Shown here: positions 1-21,923 of the stretch, one piece after another
How positions within the stretch are numbered: position 1 is the first letter of the stretch
Layout of the letters: each line of letters starts with the position of its first letter
Source of the DNA: a virus
Direction: 5' to 3' (one strand)
IMG/VR virus record: IMGVR_UViG_3300045988_093606
DNA: 36,091 nt
Translations under genes and position numbers: made by a program
Notes under the pieces: generated by a model
Told to the model about the DNA's origin: nothing
The model's input: the letters and a program-made list of their open reading frames with translations, nothing else
The model's database searches: none

Positions 1-99
1 GTTTTTTTGTTATTGACAATCGCAAGAAAATGTGATATACTATTTCTTGAAAATATTGGAGATAGCAAGCAATGACGGTGTAATGATTGTAAGTTCGCA
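1..99. repeat. Left copy of the exact 99-bp terminal direct repeat (identical to 35993-36091)
   Basis: Base-by-base comparison of both window ends shows 99/99 identity. Confidence 0.95.
13..41 (+). promoter_or_regulatory. Near-consensus sigma-A type promoter: TTGACA (13-18), 17-nt spacer, TGaTATACT extended -10 (33-41); reads antisense into the recombinase gene
   Basis: Hexamers and spacing read directly. Lies just downstream of the lysin terminator in the circular map. A second copy sits at 36005-36033. Confidence 0.55.
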
Positions 100-1554
100 T
101 TTTGTTGCACTGCCTCCACCACACGCAACACTGCACGAACTCTCCCGCAGAGCAGCGGTTACCTGCTCCAGCGGGGGAGTTTTTGTTTTATCGGTCAGAT
201 TGACCAGCACCGTGATCTGCTCCTTGTACACGATAACCTGATTCACAAGCAACTGCAGGATCTTCTCCGTGCCCTCTGCCTGCACTTCCAGCAGGCGGTG
301 TGCGAAGTACTGGAAATGCTCCAGTTTCAGCTCCGGTGCGTCGGTTTGCAGCAGTCGCACCTCCGTTTCCAGAGCCGCTTTCTGCTGCTCCAGCTGCTGC
401 ATGGTCGCTTGCAGGGCTGCCGATGTGATGCCGTTCAGCACGGCGTTGACAGCGTTCTCCAGTTTCTTTTCCGTTTCCTGCAATCGCCGCTGTGCAGCTG
501 TCAGATCGGCGTTTTCGTGGGTGCTCTGCTGGTACAGTGCATAGGTGGCGTTTGCGATCTGCTCGCACGCCTCCGGGGTAGTGTACTGTGCGATCGCATC
601 CAGCACAGCGTGTTCCAGTTCCGCAGCAGGCAGCCAGCCGCAGCACTTGTTCGGGCAGCAGTAGTAATAATACCGCTTGTCCGTTTTGCTGGTTCCGGCT
701 CTGCCGGTGAGCCGTCTGCCGCAAGTGCCGCAGATCGCTTTTCCGGTCAGCACATATTCATGGGGGCTCTGGGTGTGGCGGTGCTTGTGTCTGGATTCCG
801 TCAGACGTTCCTGCACGCTCCGGAACAACTCCGGCTCGATGATCGGGGGACAGTGGGCATCTTCTCCGGCACACTGGAACGTCCCTGTGTATCGCTGGTT
901 GGCAAGGATTCGGGAGATCGTATCAATGCGGAACTGCTTGCCACGGCTGGTAGTGTAGCCGGCGTGGTTCAGATCGTCGCATATCTGGGCGAATGTCATG
1001 CCGCTGTCGTAGCTGGTGAAGATCCGGCGTACCAGTGCCGCACCTGCCGGATCGATCTCCATTCGCTTGTCTGCTCCGATGCGGTAGCCCAGAGCCACGT
1101 TGCCGCCGGTAGTCTTGCCCTTGATGGCGTTCTCACGCATTCCACGCTTGATCTTCTGGGAAAGCTCCGCACTGTAGTACTCGTTCATTGCCTCCAGCAG
1201 TCCTTCCAGAATGATGCCCTCCGGACTGTCTGTGATATGCTCTTTGGCAGAGAGAACCCGCACGCCGTTGGCTTTCAGCTTGCTTTTGTACATGGCACTG
1301 TCATAGCGGTTTCTGGCGAATCGGTCAAGCTTGTACACAATGACAGCCTGAAAAGTCTTGTACTTGCTGTCGGCGATCATTCGTTGAAATTCCGGGCGGT
1401 TGGCAGTTGTGCCGCTGATCGCACGGTCAATGTATTCTCCGATGATGTTGATGCCCTCAGACGCTGCAAACGCCTTGCATTCCCGAAGCTGTCCCTCAAT
1501 GGACTGTTCGGTCTGCCGGTCGCAGCTGTAACGGGCGTAGATCACTGCATTCAT
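40..1554 (-). CDS. Large serine recombinase (phage integrase), 504 aa
   Basis: N-terminus MNAVIYARYSCDRQ...SIEGQ is the resolvase catalytic domain with the Ser nucleophile. A recombinase domain, a Cys-rich zinc ribbon (CGTCG...YYYYCC) and a C-terminal coiled coil follow. ATG at 1554 is preceded by AGGAGG; the longer ORF start at 1734 has no RBS. Confidence 0.9.
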   Translation of the reverse strand: MNAVIYARYSCDRQTEQSIEGQLRECKAFAASEGINIIGEYIDRAISGTTANRPEFQRMIADSKYKTFQAVIVYKLDRFARNRYDSAMYKSKLKANGVRVLSAKEHITDSPEGIILEGLLEAMNEYYSAELSQKIKRGMRENAIKGKTTGGNVALGYRIGADKRMEIDPAGAALVRRIFTSYDSGMTFAQICDDLNHAGYTTSRGKQFRIDTISRILANQRYTGTFQCAGEDAHCPPIIEPELFRSVQERLTESRHKHRHTQSPHEYVLTGKAICGTCGRRLTGRAGTSKTDKRYYYYCCPNKCCGWLPAAELEHAVLDAIAQYTTPEACEQIANATYALYQQSTHENADLTAAQRRLQETEKKLENAVNAVLNGITSAALQATMQQLEQQKAALETEVRLLQTDAPELKLEHFQYFAHRLLEVQAEGTEKILQLLVNQVIVYKEQITVLVNLTDKTKTPPLEQVTAALRESSCSVACGGGSATKCELTIITPSLLAISNIFKK

Positions 1555-1662
1555 GTGTAAATTTCCTCCTAAGACTTGATTTTTACGAGGAAATATGCTA
1601 TAATAGACCTTGTTTGGGAAGTCTATTATCGCAATAGTTTTTCCTCTTGCCGCTTCACGGTT

Positions 1663-1684
1663 GCCGCCGTGGGGCGGTTTTTTT
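1663..1684 (+). terminator. Intrinsic terminator on the plus strand (CCGCC-gtgg-GGCGG followed by T7)
   Basis: GC hairpin followed by seven T on the plus strand only. The minus-strand reading has no U-tract after the hairpin. Confidence 0.6.
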
Positions 1685-1696
1685 ATATTTGATGTT

Positions 1697-1725
1697 GCCC
1701 TACCGTTTTCGGTGGGGCTTTTTTT
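1697..1725 (+). terminator. Intrinsic terminator on the plus strand (9-bp stem GCCCTACCG/CGGTGGGGC, tttt loop, T7)
   Basis: Hairpin with one G-U pair followed by seven T on the plus strand only. Confidence 0.65.
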
Positions 1726-1734
1726 GTTATACAA

Positions 1735-2427
1735 TTATTCTGCATCTACAGATGAAAACTGAATGCTGTTCAAAATATCATCTAATTTCTTGGAAACATC
1801 AGATGGCTGATTGTGTACTGTTAGCTGTGCAAATACCATGTATTCAGTGGCATCATAAGCAAAGATGACAGACTTCGCTGCTGTGTCATAATCATCGTTT
1901 ACTAGCGTGTAATTCATAACAGCCGCTTGAATACCATCATATGTTTCGTAGGTATATCCATCGTAGCCGTATATATCGCCATTAGCAGCCTCCTCTAAAA
2001 ATTGTTCGTCCGTTACTTTTACTGCAATAGAGAGTAAATCAGTGTTACTAAAATTTTTGAAAGAAACATCTTTGCCGGTCGTGATAGAGAAACTGGAACG
2101 GTCTTCTGCATACCACAAATACGGTGCGTCGTTTGAACGCTCCCAAGTCGCAGGGATTTTCAGTTTCATTTCTTCCGCTGTTATATCTGCAAGTTCCGGT
2201 TCGAGAGCTTGAGCTGTGGTCGTTTCTACTATAGTTGTACTTTCGGTTTTGAGCGTAGTTTCTTCCGCTTTTTGTGCGGTGTATTCGGTTTCTTTGGTTG
2301 TTTCTTCCGTTCTAGTAGCCGTTTCGGTTTGCTTGCTGCTCTCTGATTTTGCTTGTTCCGCCCCGCACCCCGAGAGTGATGCCATTACAGCACCAGCTAA
2401 CAAAATAGAAATCAGTTTCTTTTTCAT
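1735..2427 (-). CDS. Secreted lipoprotein, 230 aa (Thr/Glu-rich linker plus a globular C-terminal domain)
   Basis: MKKKLISILLAGAVMASLSGC is a signal peptide with an L-S-G-C lipobox. ATG at 2427 is preceded by GAGAAGG. Lower GC than flanking genes. Sits between int and the repressor. Confidence 0.8.
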   Translation of the reverse strand: MKKKLISILLAGAVMASLSGCGAEQAKSESSKQTETATRTEETTKETEYTAQKAEETTLKTESTTIVETTTAQALEPELADITAEEMKLKIPATWERSNDAPYLWYAEDRSSFSITTGKDVSFKNFSNTDLLSIAVKVTDEQFLEEAANGDIYGYDGYTYETYDGIQAAVMNYTLVNDDYDTAAKSVIFAYDATEYMVFAQLTVHNQPSDVSKKLDDILNSIQFSSVDAE

Positions 2428-2469
2428 AAGTAACACCTTCTCTTTCAAACAAAATAATATGCCAATATA

Positions 2470-3195
2470 TCACTCTGCAACCTGTGCCACGCCAATTACC
2501 TTGCCGCAGCATTTTACGCGGTTGTATTCATGCAGAGGGATCGGATCGTAGTCTTCGTTCAGAGAGATCAAGCAGTCTCCGCCGAATTTCTTGATATAGC
2601 CGTCGCCGTCTACCACGAAGATACCGACTTCGCCGACTTCCACAGAATCTGCTTGTTCTACCAGCACAATATCTCCGTCGTGGTATACCGGCTCCATGCT
2701 GTTGCCGGAAATCATCAGCCCATAATCCGCACGACGTGCTGCCGGCGTATCCAGTACGTCCAGCCGTTCCATACGTTCGTAGGAATCCAGCATTACGCCT
2801 GTTCCGGCAGACGCCTTGTATTCGCTGTAGCAGATCGTCCATGTGTGGGACTGCGTTTGTGCAGGAGCAGGAACTGTGCAGCGTTCTGATTCCTCATTCA
2901 ACACATAATCTACAATCTTTTTTCCGTGGCTATCAAGACCACGGTATTTTTTTACCATTACGATTTCAGGATATGTAAAATCAATTTGCTGCATTTCAAC
3001 AGCTTCGTGAAAAATGTAGTTTGCATCTGTTTTTAGCGCATCAAAAATCTTGGGCATTAACTCCATTTTAGGATTGCTGACACCAGTTTCATAATTTCCG
3101 ATTGAACCTTGTGTTACACCCACTCTTTTAGCAAGCTCTAGTTGGGACATACCCAGTTCTTCACGTCTTTTCTTGATTCTTTCTCCGATACTCAT
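2470..3195 (-). CDS. CI/LexA-like phage repressor: XRE HTH N-domain plus S24 self-cleaving peptidase C-domain, 241 aa
   Basis: The HTH is MSQLELAKRVGVTQGSIGNYETG. There is an Ala-Gly cleavage site (KASAGTG), a GNSMEP catalytic Ser motif and a downstream Lys (YIKKF). ATG at 3195. Confidence 0.9.
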   Translation of the reverse strand: MSIGERIKKRREELGMSQLELAKRVGVTQGSIGNYETGVSNPKMELMPKIFDALKTDANYIFHEAVEMQQIDFTYPEIVMVKKYRGLDSHGKKIVDYVLNEESERCTVPAPAQTQSHTWTICYSEYKASAGTGVMLDSYERMERLDVLDTPAARRADYGLMISGNSMEPVYHDGDIVLVEQADSVEVGEVGIFVVDGDGYIKKFGGDCLISLNEDYDPIPLHEYNRVKCCGKVIGVAQVAE

Positions 3196-3226
3196 TCGAT
3201 CACCGCCTATCAAGTTTGATGTATAC

Positions 3227-3255
3227 ATTATACCACGAAAAATGCAGAAAGTCAA
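3227..3255 (-). promoter_or_regulatory. Repressor promoter: TTGACT (3255-3250), 17-nt spacer, TATAAT (3232-3227)
   Basis: Read on the reverse complement. Located about 30 nt upstream of the repressor start. Confidence 0.6.
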
Positions 3256-3263
3256 TATAAATA

Positions 3264-3403
3264 TACAAGTAACTTGATATTATACTATATGCACAAAAAG
3301 CAACTTGATAATTTGTATATTTTTGTATCAAAAAAGTTGATTGAAAAGTCTTGACGAATCAAGAAACTTGTGATATAATAAAATTGCAATCAAGAAAATT
3401 GAT
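3264..3403. promoter_or_regulatory. Operator array: five 15-bp sites related to ATCAAGAAACTTGAT, starting at 3264, 3295, 3327, 3358 and 3389
   Basis: Sites are TACAAGTAACTTGAT, AAAAAGCAACTTGAT, ATCAAAAAAGTTGAT, ATCAAGAAACTTGTG and ATCAAGAAAATTGAT. Start-to-start spacing is 31, 32, 31 and 31 bp. A related 12-mer, ATCAAGTTTGAT, sits at 3209-3220. Confidence 0.7.
3351..3379 (+). promoter_or_regulatory. Early lytic promoter (PR-like): TTGACG (3351-3356), 17-nt spacer, TGaTATAAT (3371-3379)
   Basis: Hexamers and spacing read directly. The operator at 3358-3372 fills the spacer. Confidence 0.7.
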
Positions 3404-3507
3404 TGAAACGGTATCCGGCTATAGGGGAAAATGAAACACTCCAAATAAAATCGGATGCGAGTTATCAAAAACCAATCGTTATATATCATAGAAACGAGGT
3501 GAACAGT

Positions 3508-3714
3508 ATGGACGTTGTAGTGTATAACATCAGACGCATCATGGAAGAAAAAGGTCTGAAACAGAAGTACGTTGCAGAACGCTCTGGATTCAGTGAGCAG
3601 GAGTTCAGCAATATGCTCTGCAATCGTAAGCGAATAAACACAGACTTTATCAATCCGATTTGTGTCGCTCTTGGGGCAAAGCCGAACGACTTGTTCGAAC
3701 TGCAGAAATCGTGA
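3508..3714 (+). CDS. Cro-like XRE-family HTH regulator, 68 aa
   Basis: The HTH is KQKYVAERSGFSEQEFSNMLCNRKRI. ATG at 3508 is preceded by GAGGTGA. It is the first gene divergent from the repressor. Confidence 0.75.
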   Translation: MDVVVYNIRRIMEEKGLKQKYVAERSGFSEQEFSNMLCNRKRINTDFINPICVALGAKPNDLFELQKS

Positions 3715-3748
3715 GAACTGGGTGTGTCACAGAAAAGAGGTGTGAACT

Positions 3749-3961
3749 GTGAAAGTTAAAATCGAAGCAAATGAAATTGGTCAAACAGCGATCTGGCTTG
3801 ATGACAAGAGATTGGAATGTGTACTTGGCTACAGCATAAGTAGTGTTCCTGGACCAGGGAATCGATTCGTTCTTCATTTGGATATTGATATGACACCCGA
3901 TCTGTTCAAGGTAGATCTGAAAAACGAGATAGATTCACACGCATTCTGTAATCTTATTTAA
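3749..3961 (+). CDS. Hypothetical protein, 70 aa (GTG start)
   Basis: GTG at 3749 lies 8 nt after AAGAGG. No recognisable motif. Confidence 0.5.
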   Translation: MKVKIEANEIGQTAIWLDDKRLECVLGYSISSVPGPGNRFVLHLDIDMTPDLFKVDLKNEIDSHAFCNLI

Positions 3962-4294
3962 CAGAGCTACAACAAAATCCAGAAACGCTGTGAGAACGGC
4001 GCCAGCAACAAACCAAAATACACGAATATACGGTTTTCTGTGTTTTTCGTCATAGAATGCAATTGTTTTCGGAGTTATGGAAAATCCGCCGTCATCGTAT
4101 TTTCGGATTAGTTCGTTTTCTGACAATTCCCAAATGCACATTTTTGCTTCGGCTTCCGAAAACTTCTGAAATCGTTTTAATTCCGGATATCGAAAGGTAA
4201 ATAAAACATTCAAGCCATCTCCGTGGCGGCATCGATACCGAAACTCACGTACAATTGCAGTTAAAAATCGGTTTGCTTGATTGGATAAGTACAA
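3935..4294 (-). CDS. Reverse-oriented hypothetical protein with a C-terminal transmembrane anchor, about 119 aa (TTG start)
   Basis: GGAAGGGGG RBS lies 7-8 nt before the TTG at 4294. The C-terminal hydrophobic helix is IRVFWFVAGAVLTAFLDFVVALL. The 3' end overlaps the 3749-3961 gene by 27 bp, convergently. The ORF could extend to the TTG at 4345. Confidence 0.55.
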   Translation of the reverse strand: MYLSNQANRFLTAIVREFRYRCRHGDGLNVLFTFRYPELKRFQKFSEAEAKMCIWELSENELIRKYDDGGFSITPKTIAFYDEKHRKPYIRVFWFVAGAVLTAFLDFVVALLNKITECV

Positions 4295-15797: not shown

Positions 15798-16199
15798 ATG
15801 CTGACAGAACAGCGTAAACGACTTGTGGAAGAATACATCAAGCTGCGGTGCAAAGACCAGCGCCAGGCGGCGATCAACGCCGGATACAGTCCGAGATCAG
15901 CAGCAGTGCAGGCGTGTGAGATACTGAAAAATCCCGAAGTACAGGAATATCTGCAGGAGCAAAAACGTGCGGTATTCCGCCGTGTACAGGAAGAACTGGC
16001 AATTTCCGCTTCGGATGCGGTTGCAACCGTGTACGCCATTATGACGGACGCAGAGGCGAAAGATGCGGACAGGCTGAAAGCCGCCTTTGATATTCTCGAC
16101 CGTGCCGGATTCCGTCCGGGGGACAAGACAGATGCGGGCGATGCGGCTGCAGAACTGCCGAAACTGCTGGAGGCATTGGAGGATAACGATGACGTTTGA
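15798..16199 (+). CDS. terS: Terminase small subunit (Terminase_2/P27-like), 133 aa
   Basis: RKRLVEEYIK...QRQAAINAGYSPRSAAVQACEILKNPEVQEY is the typical TerS HTH. Overlaps the terL start. Confidence 0.8.
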   Translation: MLTEQRKRLVEEYIKLRCKDQRQAAINAGYSPRSAAVQACEILKNPEVQEYLQEQKRAVFRRVQEELAISASDAVATVYAIMTDAEAKDADRLKAAFDILDRAGFRPGDKTDAGDAAAELPKLLEALEDNDDV

Positions 16200-17454
16200 G
16201 AAACTTTCCCGAAAACAGAAGACTGTGTTCCGCTGGGCATACCGTCCGGAGGCTTACGCCTTGATCTGTGACGGCTCTGTCCGTTCTGGCAAGACTGCAG
16301 CAATGGCGTGCAGTTTTATCCACTGGGCAATGTCACAGTTTGACGGAGAGCGGTTTGCGATCTGCGGGAACACCGTAAAATCTGCGGAGCGAAACATCAT
16401 CATGGAGATCATGCAGATGGTTGACATCACGCACTACTACGATGTGTCGTATGTGGGCGGAGATTCCCACCTGATGACGGTTTCCGGCTGCGGCAAAAGC
16501 AATCGTTTTTACGTGTTTGGCGGAAAAGACGAAGGCTCTTACAAGCTTGTACAAGGGCTGACGCTGGCAGGAGTTCTGTTCGACGAAGTGGCGCTGATGC
16601 CGGAAAGCTTTGTGAATCAGGCGATCGCCCGTACCTTGTCTGTGGACGGCACCAGGTTGTGGTTTAACTGCAACCCGGACAGCCCCGAACACTGGTTTTA
16701 CAAGAACTGGATACAAAAAGCAGACAACGGCGAAAGAAATGACGTGCTGCACCTGCATTTCACAATGTGGGATAACCCGATCATGACCGCCGAAAAGATC
16801 CACCGTGCAGAGGGAATGTATGCAGGCGTGTTTTACGACAGATACATTCAGGGGCAGTGGGTAGTCGCAGAAGGCACTGTATACACCATGTTTGACAGGC
16901 AGCGGCATATCGTTCCGGATACGGTCAAGCTGCTGCCGGACGGGGATTACTTTATCTCCTGCGACTACGGCACGCTGAACCCGACCAGTGCAGGACTTTG
17001 GTATCTGGATCCGACCGGACACGCCACACGGCTGCGGGAGTATTACTACAGCGGACGAGACGGCACGCCACGGACCGATGAGGAACACTACAAAGCACTG
17101 GAACAGCTGGCGGGAGAATGTATTGACGAGATACGTGCGGTCATTGTGGACCCGTCGGCAGCGTCGTTTATCGCCTGTATCCGACGGCACGGCAGGATGC
17201 GTGTCAAGCAGGCGGACAACAGCGTGCTTGACGGGATACGGGACACATCTGTGCTGCTGCAGCACGGTTATCTGCACTTTTGCAGCGGTTGTGCAGATGT
17301 GATCCGGGAATTCGGGCTGTATCGATGGAACGAGAAACAGTCCCATGATGCAGTACTGAAAGAAAATGACCACGCCATGGATGATATGCGGTATTTCGTG
17401 CGAACGGCAATGCGGCGGACGATCCGGCAGGTGAGAGGTGAAGCAAAACGATAA
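16189..17454 (+). CDS. terL: Terminase large subunit (PBSX/Terminase_3-like), 421 aa
   Basis: Walker A DGSVRSGKT, Walker B VLFDEV, and a C-terminal RNaseH-like nuclease region (VIVDPS...DDMRY). Confidence 0.9.
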   Translation: MTFEKLSRKQKTVFRWAYRPEAYALICDGSVRSGKTAAMACSFIHWAMSQFDGERFAICGNTVKSAERNIIMEIMQMVDITHYYDVSYVGGDSHLMTVSGCGKSNRFYVFGGKDEGSYKLVQGLTLAGVLFDEVALMPESFVNQAIARTLSVDGTRLWFNCNPDSPEHWFYKNWIQKADNGERNDVLHLHFTMWDNPIMTAEKIHRAEGMYAGVFYDRYIQGQWVVAEGTVYTMFDRQRHIVPDTVKLLPDGDYFISCDYGTLNPTSAGLWYLDPTGHATRLREYYYSGRDGTPRTDEEHYKALEQLAGECIDEIRAVIVDPSAASFIACIRRHGRMRVKQADNSVLDGIRDTSVLLQHGYLHFCSGCADVIREFGLYRWNEKQSHDAVLKENDHAMDDMRYFVRTAMRRTIRQVRGEAKR

Positions 17455-17525
17455 ACATATTTCAGATTCTGGGGAACTGGCTGTTCCGGAACAAGCCGGG
17501 CGCAGAACAGCCGGTATCTTCCCGT

Positions 17526-18836
17526 ATGCAGACCGCACTGGAAACATGGCGGCTGATCTATGAGATGGGCGATGACTGCGGGGCGTTGGGGCTGCCGGCG
17601 GGGATCGCATCGGAGTTCTCACGGCTGATGCTGGCAGAGTCCGACATACACACGGAAGAAAGCAACGCCAGGGCTGTGTTCCTCGGGGAGCAGATGGATG
17701 ATTTTCTTGCAAAGTTCTCCGAAAAAGCAGAGGTAGCGTGCGCTCTGGGCAGCATGGCGTTCAAGCCTTATGTATCCGGCGGGGAAATCCTGGTGGATAT
17801 GATTCGTGCAGACCGGTATGTTCCAACTGCATTTGACGTTAACGGCAATGTGACCGCTGCGGTATTTCTGGCACGCAAAACGGTCGGGAAAGCGTACTAT
17901 ACACGGCTGGAATTCCACAGCTGGGACGCAGCGGCAAAGCGCTATACCGTGGAAAACCAGGCGTACCGGTCGCTGGGCGTGGATTCCCTGGGCGCAGCCT
18001 GCGACTTGTCAGAGGTAGAGGGATGGGAACAGCTGCAGCCGCATCAGGAAATTGCAAATGTGCCTGCTCCGTTGTTTGCGGTATTTCGTATTCCGGCGTC
18101 TAACCGTGTGGATATGGATTCCGCAGTCGGCGTGTCTGTATATGCCAATGCGGTGGATCTGATCCGGCAGGCAGACGAGCAGTGGCGAAAAATCACATGG
18201 GAATATGATGCGTCAGAAATGGCGGTCGATGCGTCAATAGATCTCTTTGACTTTTCTGCTGCGGACAAAAAGACAGAGAAACGGCTGACGCTCCCCAAAG
18301 GCAAAAAGCGGTTGTTCCGGAAATATGACTTCGGGGAAAATGCCGACATCACCAAAATGATGCAGGTGTACGCTCCGGCGATCCGGGACACGTCATTGTT
18401 CAACGGACTGAACCACATCTTACAGCGGATTGAATTCAACGTCGGTCTGGCATACGGGACGATCTCAGAGCCGCAGGACGTGGAAAAAACTGCCGAAGAG
18501 ATACGCACCTCCAAGCAGCGCAGCTATGTACACGTCTCTGCGATGCAGAAATCGTTGGAATATGCGCTGCGGCAGCTGGTAAGCGCTATGGATGTGTATG
18601 CGACGCTGTACCATCTGGCGCCGCAGGGAGCGTGTACGCTGGCGTGCAACTGGGGTGACAGTGTTCTGGAGGATACCGACAAGGAATTCCAGCGGCGGAT
18701 GCAGATGTGCAGCGCCAAGCTGCTGAAACCGGAATATCTGATCTCCTACGCTATGGGCTGCACTGTGGAGGATGCTGCGGAATACATACCGGAGCAGACG
18801 GATGGCGGCGGCTTGTTCGGCGGTGGTGGGTTCTGA
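17526..18836 (+). CDS. Portal protein (SPP1 gp6-like), at least 436 aa; the true start may be upstream
   Basis: Position after terL, plus size. The reading frame is open from 17442 with no ATG/GTG/TTG before 17526. Confidence 0.75.
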   Translation: MQTALETWRLIYEMGDDCGALGLPAGIASEFSRLMLAESDIHTEESNARAVFLGEQMDDFLAKFSEKAEVACALGSMAFKPYVSGGEILVDMIRADRYVPTAFDVNGNVTAAVFLARKTVGKAYYTRLEFHSWDAAAKRYTVENQAYRSLGVDSLGAACDLSEVEGWEQLQPHQEIANVPAPLFAVFRIPASNRVDMDSAVGVSVYANAVDLIRQADEQWRKITWEYDASEMAVDASIDLFDFSAADKKTEKRLTLPKGKKRLFRKYDFGENADITKMMQVYAPAIRDTSLFNGLNHILQRIEFNVGLAYGTISEPQDVEKTAEEIRTSKQRSYVHVSAMQKSLEYALRQLVSAMDVYATLYHLAPQGACTLACNWGDSVLEDTDKEFQRRMQMCSAKLLKPEYLISYAMGCTVEDAAEYIPEQTDGGGLFGGGGF

Positions 18837-20818
18837 TGCGGAACTACGAACCGAATGCGGACCGTGTTGTGGCACTGTATCAGCAGCTGGAAGATGACAT
18901 CATCACTGCGATGATACGGCGCATGATGCGCATGGGCAAGGTGTCTGACACAACAAAGTACCAGGCGGAGATCATGCAGCAGGCTGGCTTGCTGTATACG
19001 GACATTGTGCAGATCATCACTGCCCGGACAGATGCCTGCTCTGCGGCGGTAAAAGCGTTGTTCGAAGATGCGGGCGTGGAAACCGTCAGTATTGAGAATG
19101 ATATCCACGAAACCGCAGAGCAGCTGCCGGTCAACATCCGGCAAAGCAGCCCCATGCGGCGTGTGTTGGAAGCTGGCTACCGCAAAACGCAGAAGACACT
19201 GCGGAATCTGGTCGGCACCACAGCAAGCACCACACAGCAGGCGTTTTATGATGCCTGTGATCGTTCCTATACGCAGGTGTCCTCCGGTGCGTTTTCCTAT
19301 CAGGAGGCGATCCGCACGGCTGTTCGCAGCCTGGCAGACACCGGCGCATACGTCACCTATCCCACCGGACACCGTGATCGCATCGACGTAGCAGTGCGGC
19401 GCTGTACGCTGACCGGCGTAGGGCAGACGTCTGCTGCGGTGTCCAAGACCTACGCAGAGGAAACAGGCTGCCATCTGATGGAACTGACCGCACACAGCGG
19501 TGCCAGACCGGAACACGCAAGGTGGCAGGGGCAGCTTGTCACGCTGACCGGCGAAGACGCCGGAGAAACCATTGACGGGCTGCACGTGTATACCCTGCAT
19601 GAGATCGGCTATGGTTCCGGCGAAGGATTCAAGGGCTGGAACTGCCGCCACGACTGGCACGCATACTACAAAGGCATCTCCAAACCAAATTACACGCTGG
19701 AACAGATCAAAAAGCTGAATGAGAAAAACATCTCATACAACGGCAAAAAGTACACAAAATACGAGATCAGCCAGGTGCAGCGGCAGGGCGAACGGAATGT
19801 ACGGGCGCTAAAGCGGCGGACACTGGCATCGCAGGCGGCGGTGGAAAATGCACCGGACGAAGAAACAAAAGCAGTGCTGCAGGCGGACTATGCGGCAAAT
19901 GCAGCAAAGCTGAAAGAATCCGAAAAGCAGCTGAAAACGTTTTGCAGCCAGACCGGACAGCGGAGAGATACATTCCGGGAACAGGTGGACGGATTTGGAC
20001 GGAGTGCGGCTCAGAAAGCTGTCCATGCAGCGAAACGGCAGAATCAGCAAACAGGCACACTGTCAGCTGAGGCGGCTGGACACGCTGTGGAAATTACACC
20101 ACTTACGTCAAAGGACAACGGCGGTACGGGAAAGACGTATTCGCCGGAGAAAATTACTACGGATTATATGTCACGTTTTACGCCAAAGTATTCCGATCAA
20201 ACAACACTGACTTCCGGAAATGTGCATATGAGTGTCAAAAAAGTTGCAAATAGTCGGTATCAGATGTATGCAGATGCCGATGCAGACCGTAAGAACAAAG
20301 CGGTGCGGCTTACAGAAAAAACGTTGTCAGCTATTCAACCGGAGTTGCCGAAAGATTTCCAGATTCCAAAAGTCGCAGTAGTTGATTTTCAGAAGTACCG
20401 TTTGAATCCAAACGCAATTGCTGGGTATGACAAAATCACCGACACTATGTACATGAACAGCATCTATGATTCTTCTGAGAAGATTCTGAAATATGTAAAT
20501 CTTATACCGGGACAGTTTGCAAATAATACAGAATATGCACCGATTTTGCACGAACTCGGACATAAATTTTACGAAGATTGCATCAAAAGGCTTGCAATTT
20601 CCGAAAATATCGGTTATAATGAAAGTAAGAAAAAGATTGACCGCCGAATTTTCGATTATATCGAAAAGCAAGGCAATCCGGATTATCTTTTGTGTTTCGT
20701 AAGCGGATATGCGTCAGACGGTGAATTATCTGGAAAGTTTACTGAAATTATAGCAGAGTGTTTTTCTGTAAGAAAGAAAAACGCTGTTGCCGACGCAATT
20801 TTAGCACTATTGGAGTGA
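18836..20818 (+). CDS. MuF/SPP1 gp7-family minor head protein with a C-terminal HExxH metallopeptidase-like extension, 660 aa
   Basis: The N-terminal two thirds are MuF-like (..GWNCRHDWH..). HELGH is encoded at 20549-20563. The last ~240 codons are markedly lower in GC. The start overlaps the portal stop (TGATG). Confidence 0.75.
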   Translation: MRNYEPNADRVVALYQQLEDDIITAMIRRMMRMGKVSDTTKYQAEIMQQAGLLYTDIVQIITARTDACSAAVKALFEDAGVETVSIENDIHETAEQLPVNIRQSSPMRRVLEAGYRKTQKTLRNLVGTTASTTQQAFYDACDRSYTQVSSGAFSYQEAIRTAVRSLADTGAYVTYPTGHRDRIDVAVRRCTLTGVGQTSAAVSKTYAEETGCHLMELTAHSGARPEHARWQGQLVTLTGEDAGETIDGLHVYTLHEIGYGSGEGFKGWNCRHDWHAYYKGISKPNYTLEQIKKLNEKNISYNGKKYTKYEISQVQRQGERNVRALKRRTLASQAAVENAPDEETKAVLQADYAANAAKLKESEKQLKTFCSQTGQRRDTFREQVDGFGRSAAQKAVHAAKRQNQQTGTLSAEAAGHAVEITPLTSKDNGGTGKTYSPEKITTDYMSRFTPKYSDQTTLTSGNVHMSVKKVANSRYQMYADADADRKNKAVRLTEKTLSAIQPELPKDFQIPKVAVVDFQKYRLNPNAIAGYDKITDTMYMNSIYDSSEKILKYVNLIPGQFANNTEYAPILHELGHKFYEDCIKRLAISENIGYNESKKKIDRRIFDYIEKQGNPDYLLCFVSGYASDGELSGKFTEIIAECFSVRKKNAVADAILALLE

Positions 20819-20824
20819 TGCTTT

Positions 20825-20977
20825 ATGATGTTACAACCGACAAGCGAACAAGTCGAATTGAGAAATAAGTTGCTTTCTTCCACAAATGAAAAAGAAAAAG
20901 AAACAATTCGAAAAAGGCTGAAAGAAATCGCAATTCAGCAAAAAGAGGCATTAAAAGATTGCCCGTTTGCACATTAA
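20825..20977 (+). CDS. Small helical protein, 50 aa (not in the supplied ORF track)
   Basis: Hand translation gives MMLQPTSEQVELRNKLLSSTNEKEKETIRKRLKEIAIQQKEALKDCPFAH. A GGAG lies 9 nt upstream. Low GC, same as the MuF C-terminal extension. Confidence 0.45.
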   Translation: MMLQPTSEQVELRNKLLSSTNEKEKETIRKRLKEIAIQQKEALKDCPFAH

Positions 20978-21036
20978 CTGAAAAGACGTCTCAAAACACC
21001 ACACATTTTGAGAAGTAAAACCAAATATGATAGAAA

Positions 21037-21060
21037 GCATCTCAAACGAGGTGCTTTTTT
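21037..21060 (+). terminator. Intrinsic terminator (GCATCTC-aaac-GAGGTGC followed by T6); copy 1 of the duplicated 32-bp element at 21035-21066
   Basis: 7-bp stem with one G-U pair, followed by T6. Confidence 0.6.
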
Positions 21061-21080
21061 CATGCCAGAAAGGAGCAGCT

Positions 21081-21242
21081 ATGCTTACAATGATTGTTTT
21101 GTTAGTCCTCCTCTATGCCTTGAACGGAAGTTTTGCCGTTCCCACAGTGTGCTTTGTGCTTTCGTGGATCGGCATTGGATTCGGAGCGTTTGACCTTATT
21201 TTGAAACTGTTTCTGAAAGCTTATGAGAAGCATCTCGACTGA
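21081..21242 (+). CDS. Small two-TM membrane protein, 53 aa
   Basis: MLTMIVLLVLLYALNGSFAVPTVCFVLSWIGIGFGAFDLILKLFL contains two hydrophobic helices. ATG follows AAAGGAG at 6-nt spacing. Confidence 0.6.
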   Translation: MLTMIVLLVLLYALNGSFAVPTVCFVLSWIGIGFGAFDLILKLFLKAYEKHLD

Positions 21243-21253
21243 GGTGCTTTTTT
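21230..21253 (+). terminator. Intrinsic terminator (GCATCTC-gact-GAGGTGC followed by T6); copy 2 of the duplicated 32-bp element at 21228-21259
   Basis: Same stem as copy 1; only the loop differs. Confidence 0.6.
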
Positions 21254-21340
21254 CATGCCCCGACCACGGGCATAAACTGGCGGAGGGCGGAAAACAAGAA
21301 CAATTCAGCCAGCGGGTACGGCGTTCTTATTTGTGAAATC

Positions 21341-21398: not shown

Positions 21399-21923
21399 AT
21401 GGAAGATGAAACCAAAAACGAGCCGACACAGCAGCAGGAGCAGACGCCGGAGCCGCAGGCAAAGACCTACAGCGAAGAGGACTACAACGCACTGCAGGCA
21501 AAGTTGGATGCTGTCACAGGGCAGCTGAACGATGCGAACAGCAAGATCCAGTCGTACACCGAAATGGATATTGACGGCATCAAGCAGTCCGCTGCCGACT
21601 GGCAGAAGAAGTACGAGGCCGCACAGAATCAGATGCAGCAGATGGAGTACAGCGCCAAGCTGGACAAGTTTGTGGCGCAGCAGGGCTGCCGGAATCCGAT
21701 CTATGCGGACTATCTGAAACGCCAGATCGAAAGCAAGCAGCTGAAATTTGACGGCGACACACTGCTCGGCGGCGAAGATGTGGTAAAGGCGCTGAAAGAA
21801 AGCTGCCCGGACGCATTTTCTACAGAAGACGAGAAATCGCCGGTGTTTGTGGATGCCACACCCGGCAGCACAAACAAGGACGTAACGGACGAAATGGTCC
21901 GTCGTGTCATGGGCTTGAAGTGA
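21399..21923 (+). CDS. Scaffolding protein (GP20-like), 174 aa
   Basis: Acidic, Gln-rich coiled coil lying directly upstream of the major capsid gene. Confidence 0.75.
   Translation: MEDETKNEPTQQQEQTPEPQAKTYSEEDYNALQAKLDAVTGQLNDANSKIQSYTEMDIDGIKQSAADWQKKYEAAQNQMQQMEYSAKLDKFVAQQGCRNPIYADYLKRQIESKQLKFDGDTLLGGEDVVKALKESCPDAFSTEDEKSPVFVDATPGSTNKDVTDEMVRRVMGLK

Follow-up and report, generated by a model that had tools for sequence, protein, structure and literature searches.

A candidate MuF-type effector and immunity cassette with a predicted metallopeptidase domain in a temperate gut Clostridia phage

Relation to described systems and exchange of the cassette

MuF proteins such as SPP1 gp7 and 80alpha gp44 are located inside the phage head and ejected with the DNA, and gp44 has been described as an ejection protein (PMC12323379). 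In MuF polymorphic toxins (PMC3482391; PMC5576092), the MuF domain is followed by a variable C-terminal domain. Jamet et al. list PF04233, PF06152 (their 'MuF2'), MuF3 and MuF4 as the N-domains of this superfamily and, for 191 MuF toxins, give a small downstream open reading frame (ORF) in 89% and a metallopeptidase C-domain in 20% (PMC5576092). An experimentally studied example is Apk2/IapK, a (p)ppApp synthetase with an immunity protein that works by occluding the active site (PMC12226406); our literature search found only such Apk2-type (p)ppApp synthetases and no experimentally characterised peptidase-type MuF toxin. The DNA described here is the virus record IMGVR_UViG_3300045988_093606, a stretch of 36,091 nucleotides (nt) referred to as the window, in which a MuF head protein of 660 amino acids (aa) ends in a domain with an HExxH motif and is followed by a 50-aa ORF, the partner. 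Based on the comparisons below, this pair is best explained, with a probability of roughly 0.68, as a MuF-type polymorphic toxin (effector) and immunity cassette of a temperate gut Clostridia phage, with a putative capsid-delivered, gluzincin-type effector and its presumed cognate inhibitor. The features of the pair are as follows.

18836..20818, + strand: MuF2-family minor head protein with C-terminal predicted metallopeptidase, 660 aa (ORF and translation)
18857..19945, + strand: Phage_min_cap2 domain (PF06152, 'MuF2'), residues 8-370 (Pfam, PHROG 581)
20033..20154, + strand: pre-toxin linker '...GHAVEITPLTSKDNGGTGKTYSPEKI', residues 400-440, the recombination junction zone where homology ends
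20162..20815, + strand: zincin-like (gluzincin-type) predicted domain, residues ~443-660 (AlphaFold (AF2) model, Foldseek, family alignment)
20549..20563, + strand: HELGH (H572, E573, H576), predicted zinc ligands and catalytic base, invariant in the alignment
20744..20758, + strand: E637-I-I-A-E641 (ExxAE, in TEIIAE), predicted third zinc ligand (alignment, model)
20812..20815, + strand: GGAG ribosome-binding site within the last MuF codons, 9-nt spacer to the ATG at 20825
20825..20977, + strand: partner gene, predicted immunity protein or inhibitor, 50 aa (co-inheritance, ratio of non-synonymous to synonymous substitution rates (dN/dS), AF2 hairpin)

The ATG of the MuF gene shares one base with the portal gene stop. 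The N-terminal part of the protein matches PF06152 (E 6.6e-92, 308.7 bits vs a cut-off of 26.3) as well as the 'minor head protein' family PHROG 581, and is the conserved head- and portal-associated part that targets the protein to the capsid and portal. Across the 660 aa, the layout is simply MuF plus one C-domain. The MuF gene, the drop in GC content, the HELGH motif and the 50-aa ORF reported in a first-pass annotation of this DNA were all recovered at the same positions.

The locus resembles MuF polymorphic toxins in several respects. The MuF2 gene lies directly after the portal gene within the head module, the C-domain varies among near-identical proteins, is exchanged by recombination and is also known from orphan cassettes, and a small ORF (<150 aa) comes directly after it. 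The locus belongs to a temperate, firmicute-associated phage of the gut, which matches the temperate Firmicutes phage setting that had been proposed for it and that Jamet et al. describe for MuF toxins (PMC5576092). Differences are that the C-domain matches no sequence model in Pfam, NCBIfam or the PDB, and that the partner, whose termini are conserved, is exceptionally short (45-55 aa). As metallopeptidase C-domains and small downstream ORFs are both reported by Jamet et al., this kind of system is already known, and the novelty is an unannotated C-domain family with a miniature partner rather than a new type of system.

Relatives of the protein demonstrate the exchange of the C-terminus. The nearest, found with residues 1-420, are 95-98% identical over 420 aa, have lengths of 551-569 aa and end in PF15542 (Ntox50). 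Further relatives end in PF03496 (ADP-ribosyltransferase), PF15644 (Gln_amidase), PF21814 or unknown domains, and some stop at ~443 aa and lack any C-domain. One protein with an 87% identical N-domain (P0062) bears the same HExxH domain as the window protein, and another (P0043) differs from it by few substitutions up to '...GGTGKTYSPEKI' (residue 441) and is unrelated beyond that point. The same break is seen in the DNA of two sister phages, one of which (L020) is 99.55% identical to the window over 16001-20032 and 97.7% identical from 21257 on, while the other (L018) is 92.7% identical up to 20154, with homology back at 21256. Between these breakpoints a 42-bp hairpin element is the sole alignable stretch, and in the swapped interval the sisters encode a MuF::Ntox50 fusion (RNase), a 60- or 76-aa ORF and an 87-aa Tad2-like gene. 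In the window the swapped block extends from ~20033/20155 to 21256 and comprises the C-domain, the 50-aa ORF and a 53-aa ORF. The foreign region initially proposed at 20100-20977 is thus present but was drawn too narrowly. The expectation that the N-domain would be conserved while the C-terminus and downstream ORF swap is borne out both by the varied C-domains of the relatives and by the DNA breaks at 20032/20154 and 21257.

The linker in which homology ends is a motif common to different C-domains on its 3' side and to different MuF N-domains on its 5' side, and it falls within the N-terminal stretch of the C-domain model that has a low predicted local distance difference test score (pLDDT <50). 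The same C-domain (81-95% identical), together with its partner, is attached to no fewer than four distinct MuF N-domains, PF04233 and PF06152 types both among them, in phages with different capsid genes, and is always joined via this linker motif. GC content in 200-nt windows is 0.51-0.63 up to about nt 20100, then drops to 0.36-0.43 and rises again past ~21300. Third codon positions have a GC fraction of 0.657 in 18836-20032 and 0.726 in the scaffold gene, compared with 0.339 in 20155-20818 and 0.314 in the 50-aa ORF. Judged from these alignments and compositions, the cassette is a foreign low-GC block that replaced an earlier C-terminus through recombination in the shared linker.

Polymorphic toxin loci characteristically include tandem orphan arrays (PMC3482391), and one such array was found at the end of a contig that is assigned to a Ruminococcus-like genome (L001), where four orphan MuF C-terminal units lie in tandem at 332-3955. 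Each unit opens with the same ~67-aa MuF leader lacking a start codon, and the units differ in C-domain and small ORF, one of them being the HExxH family. Another unit in this array encodes a second domain of divergent sequence, HEFGH...EAFAE, and downstream of it an unrelated 57-aa ORF, a further one consists of an unknown 168-aa domain and a 103-aa ORF, and the last is a stub.

The C-terminal domain and its partner

In an alignment of 20 sequences of the family (A1; 38-64% identity), H151, E152, G154, H155, E216, A219 and E220 (domain numbering) are invariant. Because H, E, G, H and the E..AE residues are kept throughout, HELGH is not a chance occurrence. Minigluzincins and the M48, M56 and M78 gluzincins (ImmA/IrrE) combine HExxH with an ExxA[D/N/E]-type motif, and with the gluzincin families as a model, the ExxAE motif, with E637 (codon 20744-20746) and E641 (20756-20758), would provide the third zinc ligand, so that the predicted metal site is H572/H576/E637. 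A further invariant motif, DYMSxxFxPxYS, marks the N-terminal boundary of the C-domain.

Searches with the C-domain, both as a single sequence and as a profile, gave no match in Pfam, the annotated PHROGs families, NCBIfam, PADLOC or PDB sequences. Other members of the family gave sub-threshold, HExxH-driven Pfam matches to M78, M48 and Reprolysin_3 (E 0.05-0.09). The AF2 model of the C-domain (pLDDT 90.3) consists, in order, of a beta-hairpin subdomain, a helix, a three-stranded sheet, the long helix with HExGH, helical inserts and the ExxAE helix; HELGH falls within predicted helix 147-168 and ExxAE on predicted helix 214-223 (model numbering). When compared with the viral models of BFVD using Foldseek, this structure matched proteins named 'Metalloprotease' (E 6.7e-6), 'Minor capsid protein' (E 4.6e-5) and 'Lethal factor' (E 4e-4, template modelling (TM) score 0.69) and a mycobacteriophage MuF-like protein (E 2e-3); a match to a 'large polyvalent protein-associated domain' protein was insignificant (E 0.26). 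The best solved structure was the minigluzincin zymogen jannalysin (4jix; E 0.27, probability 0.82, TM 0.24/0.47). The zincin-like fold that had been expected is in agreement with the AF2 model and the BFVD matches, and the marginal PDB matches are its weakest leg. Taken together, the C-domain is likely a gluzincin-type metallopeptidase, as far as motifs and model can indicate.

Two groups of described zincins can be compared with this model. With the minigluzincins (jannalysin 4jix, selecase 4qhi) it shares the best PDB fold match, to structures that are zymogens, and with the M48/M78 gluzincins the weak Pfam matches of family members. The window domain is, however, twice as large as a minigluzincin and has helical inserts and an additional beta subdomain at its N-terminus, the fold E-values are non-significant and sequence homology is undetectable. 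The second group are the lethal-factor-related zincin domains of polyvalent proteins, for which Iyer et al. describe a zincin core and 12 published clades (PMC5512222). The layout of the C-domain model matches this core, with an HExxH helix, a Glu on a later helix and inserts in between. The packaged-protein setting, in which MuF is a hub domain, is likewise shared, as are the 'Lethal factor' match and the MuF-like fusions. In contrast to polyvalent proteins with their 2-15 domains, the window protein has two domains and a dedicated partner gene. Because of this simple two-domain layout, the label 'polyvalent protein', which the first-pass annotation had offered as an alternative, is the poorer fit.

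The partner gene begins 6 nt past the MuF stop codon and lies in the same frame in the window (TGA plus two codons). Its product matches 33 protein clusters, two of which occur on 171 and 107 contigs. That the 50-aa ORF is a conserved partner, as had been suggested, is confirmed by its position 3' of the domain in 54 of 55 IMG/VR viral loci (23 distinct sequences), by a 45-55-aa ORF within a few nt of the domain stop or overlapping it in all genome and metagenome loci examined, and by a dN/dS of 0.04-0.22, a pattern of substitution indicating a real gene under purifying selection. Divergence of the partner tracks that of the domain (Mantel r 0.62, a value reached in 0 of 5000 permutations), which linkage would produce as well as interaction. 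The frame of the partner relative to the domain differs between loci, and stop-codon read-through as a general feature is ruled out by this inconstancy. Downstream of other toxin domains at the same position stand unrelated small ORFs, which would look like immunity genes by their arrangement.

In its AF2 model (pLDDT 82) the partner forms a helical hairpin (helices 7-18 and 22-44) with a highly charged body, and a fold search with this hairpin returned only nonspecific helical matches (E >= 2.8). The best-conserved residues are found in the non-helical tails MMLQPT and DCPFAH. Over the family, the C-terminal tail takes the forms CPF[ACV]H, NPFHQD, xxWLT, GIFA, SSFC and MGFC, with an aromatic residue kept 2-4 positions from the end. 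A role of the Cys/His tail 'CPFAH' as a universal zinc-binding switch was considered and is weakened by these other endings; as the tail varies over the family, zinc ligation by Cys and His is not the general mechanism. On a contig from an Acutalibacteraceae metagenome-assembled genome (MAG; L011, 4680-6632), the partner is fused in frame onto the end of the MuF-protease ('...DILDLTEKGDKIMMIHMSDEE...LPFAH'), a fusion that could be real or an assembly or sequencing error. Within the protease coding region of the window, a sigma-70-like match at 20592-20620 (TTGCAA, 17 nt, TATAAT; 10/12) lies upstream of the partner ORF and could allow partner expression in lysogens, but promoter-like sites of this kind are no more numerous than in shuffled sequence.

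A word-seeded search recovered 41 homologous clusters of the C-domain, and an exhaustive profile search (E <= 1e-3) gave 231 representatives at 50% identity. Where a protein has further domains, this one stops at or near the C-terminus, and all ten multidomain members sampled are MuF fusions of the two-part layout with the domain C-terminal. In one PF04233 MuF protein of 907 aa (P0218), an intein (PF14890 Intein_splicing plus a LAGLIDADG region) separates the MuF domain from the protease domain at the C-terminus. Genome matches include Ruminococcus, Acutalibacteraceae and Lachnospiraceae MAGs. A branch of Streptococcus prophages is 27% identical and includes Javan489 of S. pyogenes M1 (M1 GAS); in this phage (L028), a 541-aa 'Phi Mu50B-like' MuF protein at 2490-4285 has the C-terminus HELTH...EVIAEAM, and the 59-aa ORF after it starts MEMMSRPTQE, echoing the MMLQPTSEQ start of the window partner.

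The domain also occurs without MuF. On Lachnospiraceae-type contigs, it is encoded as a stand-alone protein of 236-255 aa with its own start codon and followed by a partner of 45-52 aa, and such pairs were found on Clostridia MAG and metagenome contigs. They are duplicated in tandem in L005 (33-2084)/L006 and in L012 (5842-8139), and L005 holds an additional orphan partner copy at 1929-2084. In L002 the pair adjoins filamentous-phage-like genes, and in L013 (5947-6848) it lies between ABC transporter/DUF4340 genes and pyrB-pyrC-carA, and phage genes are absent within 6 kb. These stand-alone pairs indicate that domain and partner form an autonomous unit, which is consistent with a toxin/antidote logic as read from gene arrangement. 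Type II toxin-antitoxin modules are similar in that the units are two-gene pairs (236-255 plus 45-52 aa), sometimes in tandem, with overlapping or coupled ORFs and positions between housekeeping genes. They differ in that here the toxin comes first and the partner second, the partner has no DNA-binding domain, and most family members are phage head-protein fusions.

Proposed role and competing explanations

In the proposed mechanism, a few copies of the fusion would be incorporated into the capsid next to the portal and would exit together with the DNA. The protease would thereby reach the cytoplasm of the newly infected cell and cut one or more cytoplasmic proteins. The partner would bind the protease 1:1 and block its active site in the virion-producing cell and in any partner-expressing cell, and, as it lacks a signal peptide, it would act in the cytoplasm. 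The blocking element is probably a conserved unstructured tail, either the N-terminal MMxxPT or the C-terminal tail with its aromatic residue 2-4 positions from the end, and inhibition may plausibly proceed by active-site occlusion, as for IapK. The outcome may be growth inhibition of competitors, a bias between lysis and lysogeny, or removal of a defence protein. As the C-terminus is swapped between sister phages, the partner is co-inherited and the phage is temperate and firmicute-associated, the earlier interpretation as a MuF polymorphic toxin-type effector and partner is supported.

Several observations weigh against this explanation. Among the members examined, which are either MuF fusions or stand-alone, the domain was found on no other polymorphic-toxin delivery family; in the account of Jamet et al., sharing with other delivery families is typical of published MuF toxin domains (~75%) and not obligatory (PMC5576092). 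The domain has no sequence link to any curated peptidase family in Pfam, NCBIfam or the PDB, the PDB fold matches are marginal (best E 0.27), and the BFVD matches carry automatically assigned names. The Cys and His of the partner tail vary across the family, and a natural fusion of domain and partner, as in L011, is unusual for a toxin-immunity pair. In relatives the cassette adjoins anti-defence genes, and 'toxin' may misname its role.

This last point leads to the alternative that survives best, although it is held to be improbable: the injected protease could be a host-takeover or anti-defence effector that cleaves a defence or regulatory protein at the first moments of infection. The partner would then merely silence the protease during virion assembly, and chromosomal partner copies could be host decoys. 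Architecture and delivery would be the same as in the toxin and immunity explanation, and the purpose alone would differ. In related phages (L018-L027) the slot taken by the 53-aa ORF, directly after the cassette, contains Tad2-like (PF11195) and/or Sequestin (PF21825) genes, so that in these gene orders the gap between the MuF gene and the scaffold gene resembles a hotspot where accessory or counter-defence genes gather, and the counter-defence reading stays alive. The confinement of the sampled multidomain members to MuF fusions, none belonging to other polymorphic-toxin delivery families, and the extra orphan partner copy in L005 also fit an anti-defence role, and Jamet et al. consider that peptidase-type MuF toxins may be mildly toxic and counter cellular defences (PMC5576092). 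However, in near-identical phages the cassette is interchangeable with bona fide toxins (Ntox50 RNase, ADP-ribosyltransferase, Gln_amidase), the orphan arrays and stand-alone tandem pairs amid housekeeping genes are hallmarks of toxin-immunity systems, and the PADLOC search gave no match.

Perhaps, though this too is doubtful, the pair is a new and self-contained protease/inhibitor unit that serves in two settings. In phages, the capsid effector, encoded at the hotspot of Tad2-like and Sequestin genes, would act against a host defence or regulatory protein, and on chromosomes the pair would be a stand-alone toxin-antitoxin-like module, or captured copies of the partner would weaken the effectors of incoming phages, with the tail of the partner plugging the zinc site in either case.

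Far less probable is a morphogenetic or self-processing protease that trims MuF, portal or scaffold, or releases itself, under regulation by the 50-aa protein. The gene does sit amid head-assembly genes, the invariant DYMSxxFxPxYS lies at the N-terminal boundary of the domain, and Iyer et al. proposed that zincin domains of packaged phage proteins are autoproteolytic (PMC5512222). Yet sister phages whose portal, scaffold and capsid genes are 97-99% identical have no such domain or an RNase in its place, and since these near-identical phages do without it, the domain is not needed for assembly. Stand-alone copies, moreover, are found far from phage genes, and they retain the boundary motif with nothing to cleave off.

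Instead of inhibiting the adjacent protease, the 50-aa product could be processed by it, either as a substrate or as a precursor peptide, for example of the signalling or modified kind. This would accord with the termini being the most conserved parts of the partner, with the in-frame fusion in L011 and with the window ORFs lying in one frame, TGA and two codons apart. It is very unlikely, as the partner has no signal peptide and its body is a highly charged helical hairpin, as unrelated small ORFs stand behind unrelated toxin domains at the same position, and as the frame relationship is not conserved among loci. Least plausible of all is an inactive zincin-like fold acting as a purely structural or binding module of the head protein, a view that fits the lack of a sequence match to any curated peptidase family but not the invariance of the predicted catalytic and metal residues over the 20 aligned sequences, the recurrence of both motifs in the 27%-identical Streptococcus branch, or the dedicated co-evolving partner, which would be unexpected for an inert module.

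Phage context and meaning for the family

By gene content the window is a siphovirus-like temperate phage or prophage. Beside the MuF gene, the following features define its lifestyle, its head module and the remainder of the swapped block.

40-1734, minus strand: serine recombinase (integrase)
2470-3255, minus strand: helix-turn-helix (HTH)+S24 repressor (CI-like)
16087-17454: TerL, head/packaging module
17526-18836: portal protein (PF05133 match)
21036..21066, + strand: terminator-like hairpin and U-run, closing the toxin/partner unit (31-nt pattern, folding)
21081..21242, alternative start 21027, + strand: 53-aa ORF with two predicted hydrophobic segments (AAGGAG upstream)
21229..21259, + strand: second hairpin copy and U-run, right edge of the swapped block (31-nt pattern, folding)
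21399-21923: scaffold protein (PF06810 match)

An antirepressor, replication genes and a capsid protein gene are also encoded. A temperate lifestyle is evident from the genes for the integrase, the CI-like repressor and the antirepressor, and the association is with firmicute hosts, as a gut Clostridia phage. The head module has the order terminase-portal-MuF-scaffold-capsid. A GC content as low as that of the cassette is reached in just one other part of the window, at ~2750-4100 (0.365-0.38 in 880-nt windows), which corresponds to the end of the repressor gene and adjoining sequence.

Both hairpins are copies of one 31-nt element, AGCATCTC-nnnn-GAGGTGCTTTTTTCATGCC; their stems are identical, whereas their loops differ. 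This exact pattern occurs twice in the window vs 0 expected. Both fold at about -16 kcal/mol (z ~-5; the copy at 21036-21066 at -16.3 kcal/mol, z -5.0) and look like terminators from these predictions; a simple terminator scan of the window called none, the hairpins at 21036 and 21229 included. The copies bracket the 53-aa ORF, the second marks the point where sister-phage homology resumes (21256/21257), and the same motif is found 3' of the partner ORF in four related loci (L021-L024). The 53-aa ORF lies in the block without homology to the sister phages and probably encodes a small membrane protein, an accessory unit separate from toxin and partner.

MuF toxins are common in human gut phages, and the sister phages that differ only in the cassette, with clear recombination junctions, are natural comparison sets. 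With these, the effect on the recipient cell of a protease arriving with phage DNA becomes testable, as does the choice between a toxin and a counter-defence role and the means by which a protein of 50 residues silences a zincin. Javan489 in S. pyogenes offers a culturable system in which the family can be tested. If the two-setting proposal held true, plugging of the zinc site by the partner tail would be a mechanism new for polymorphic-toxin immunity proteins.

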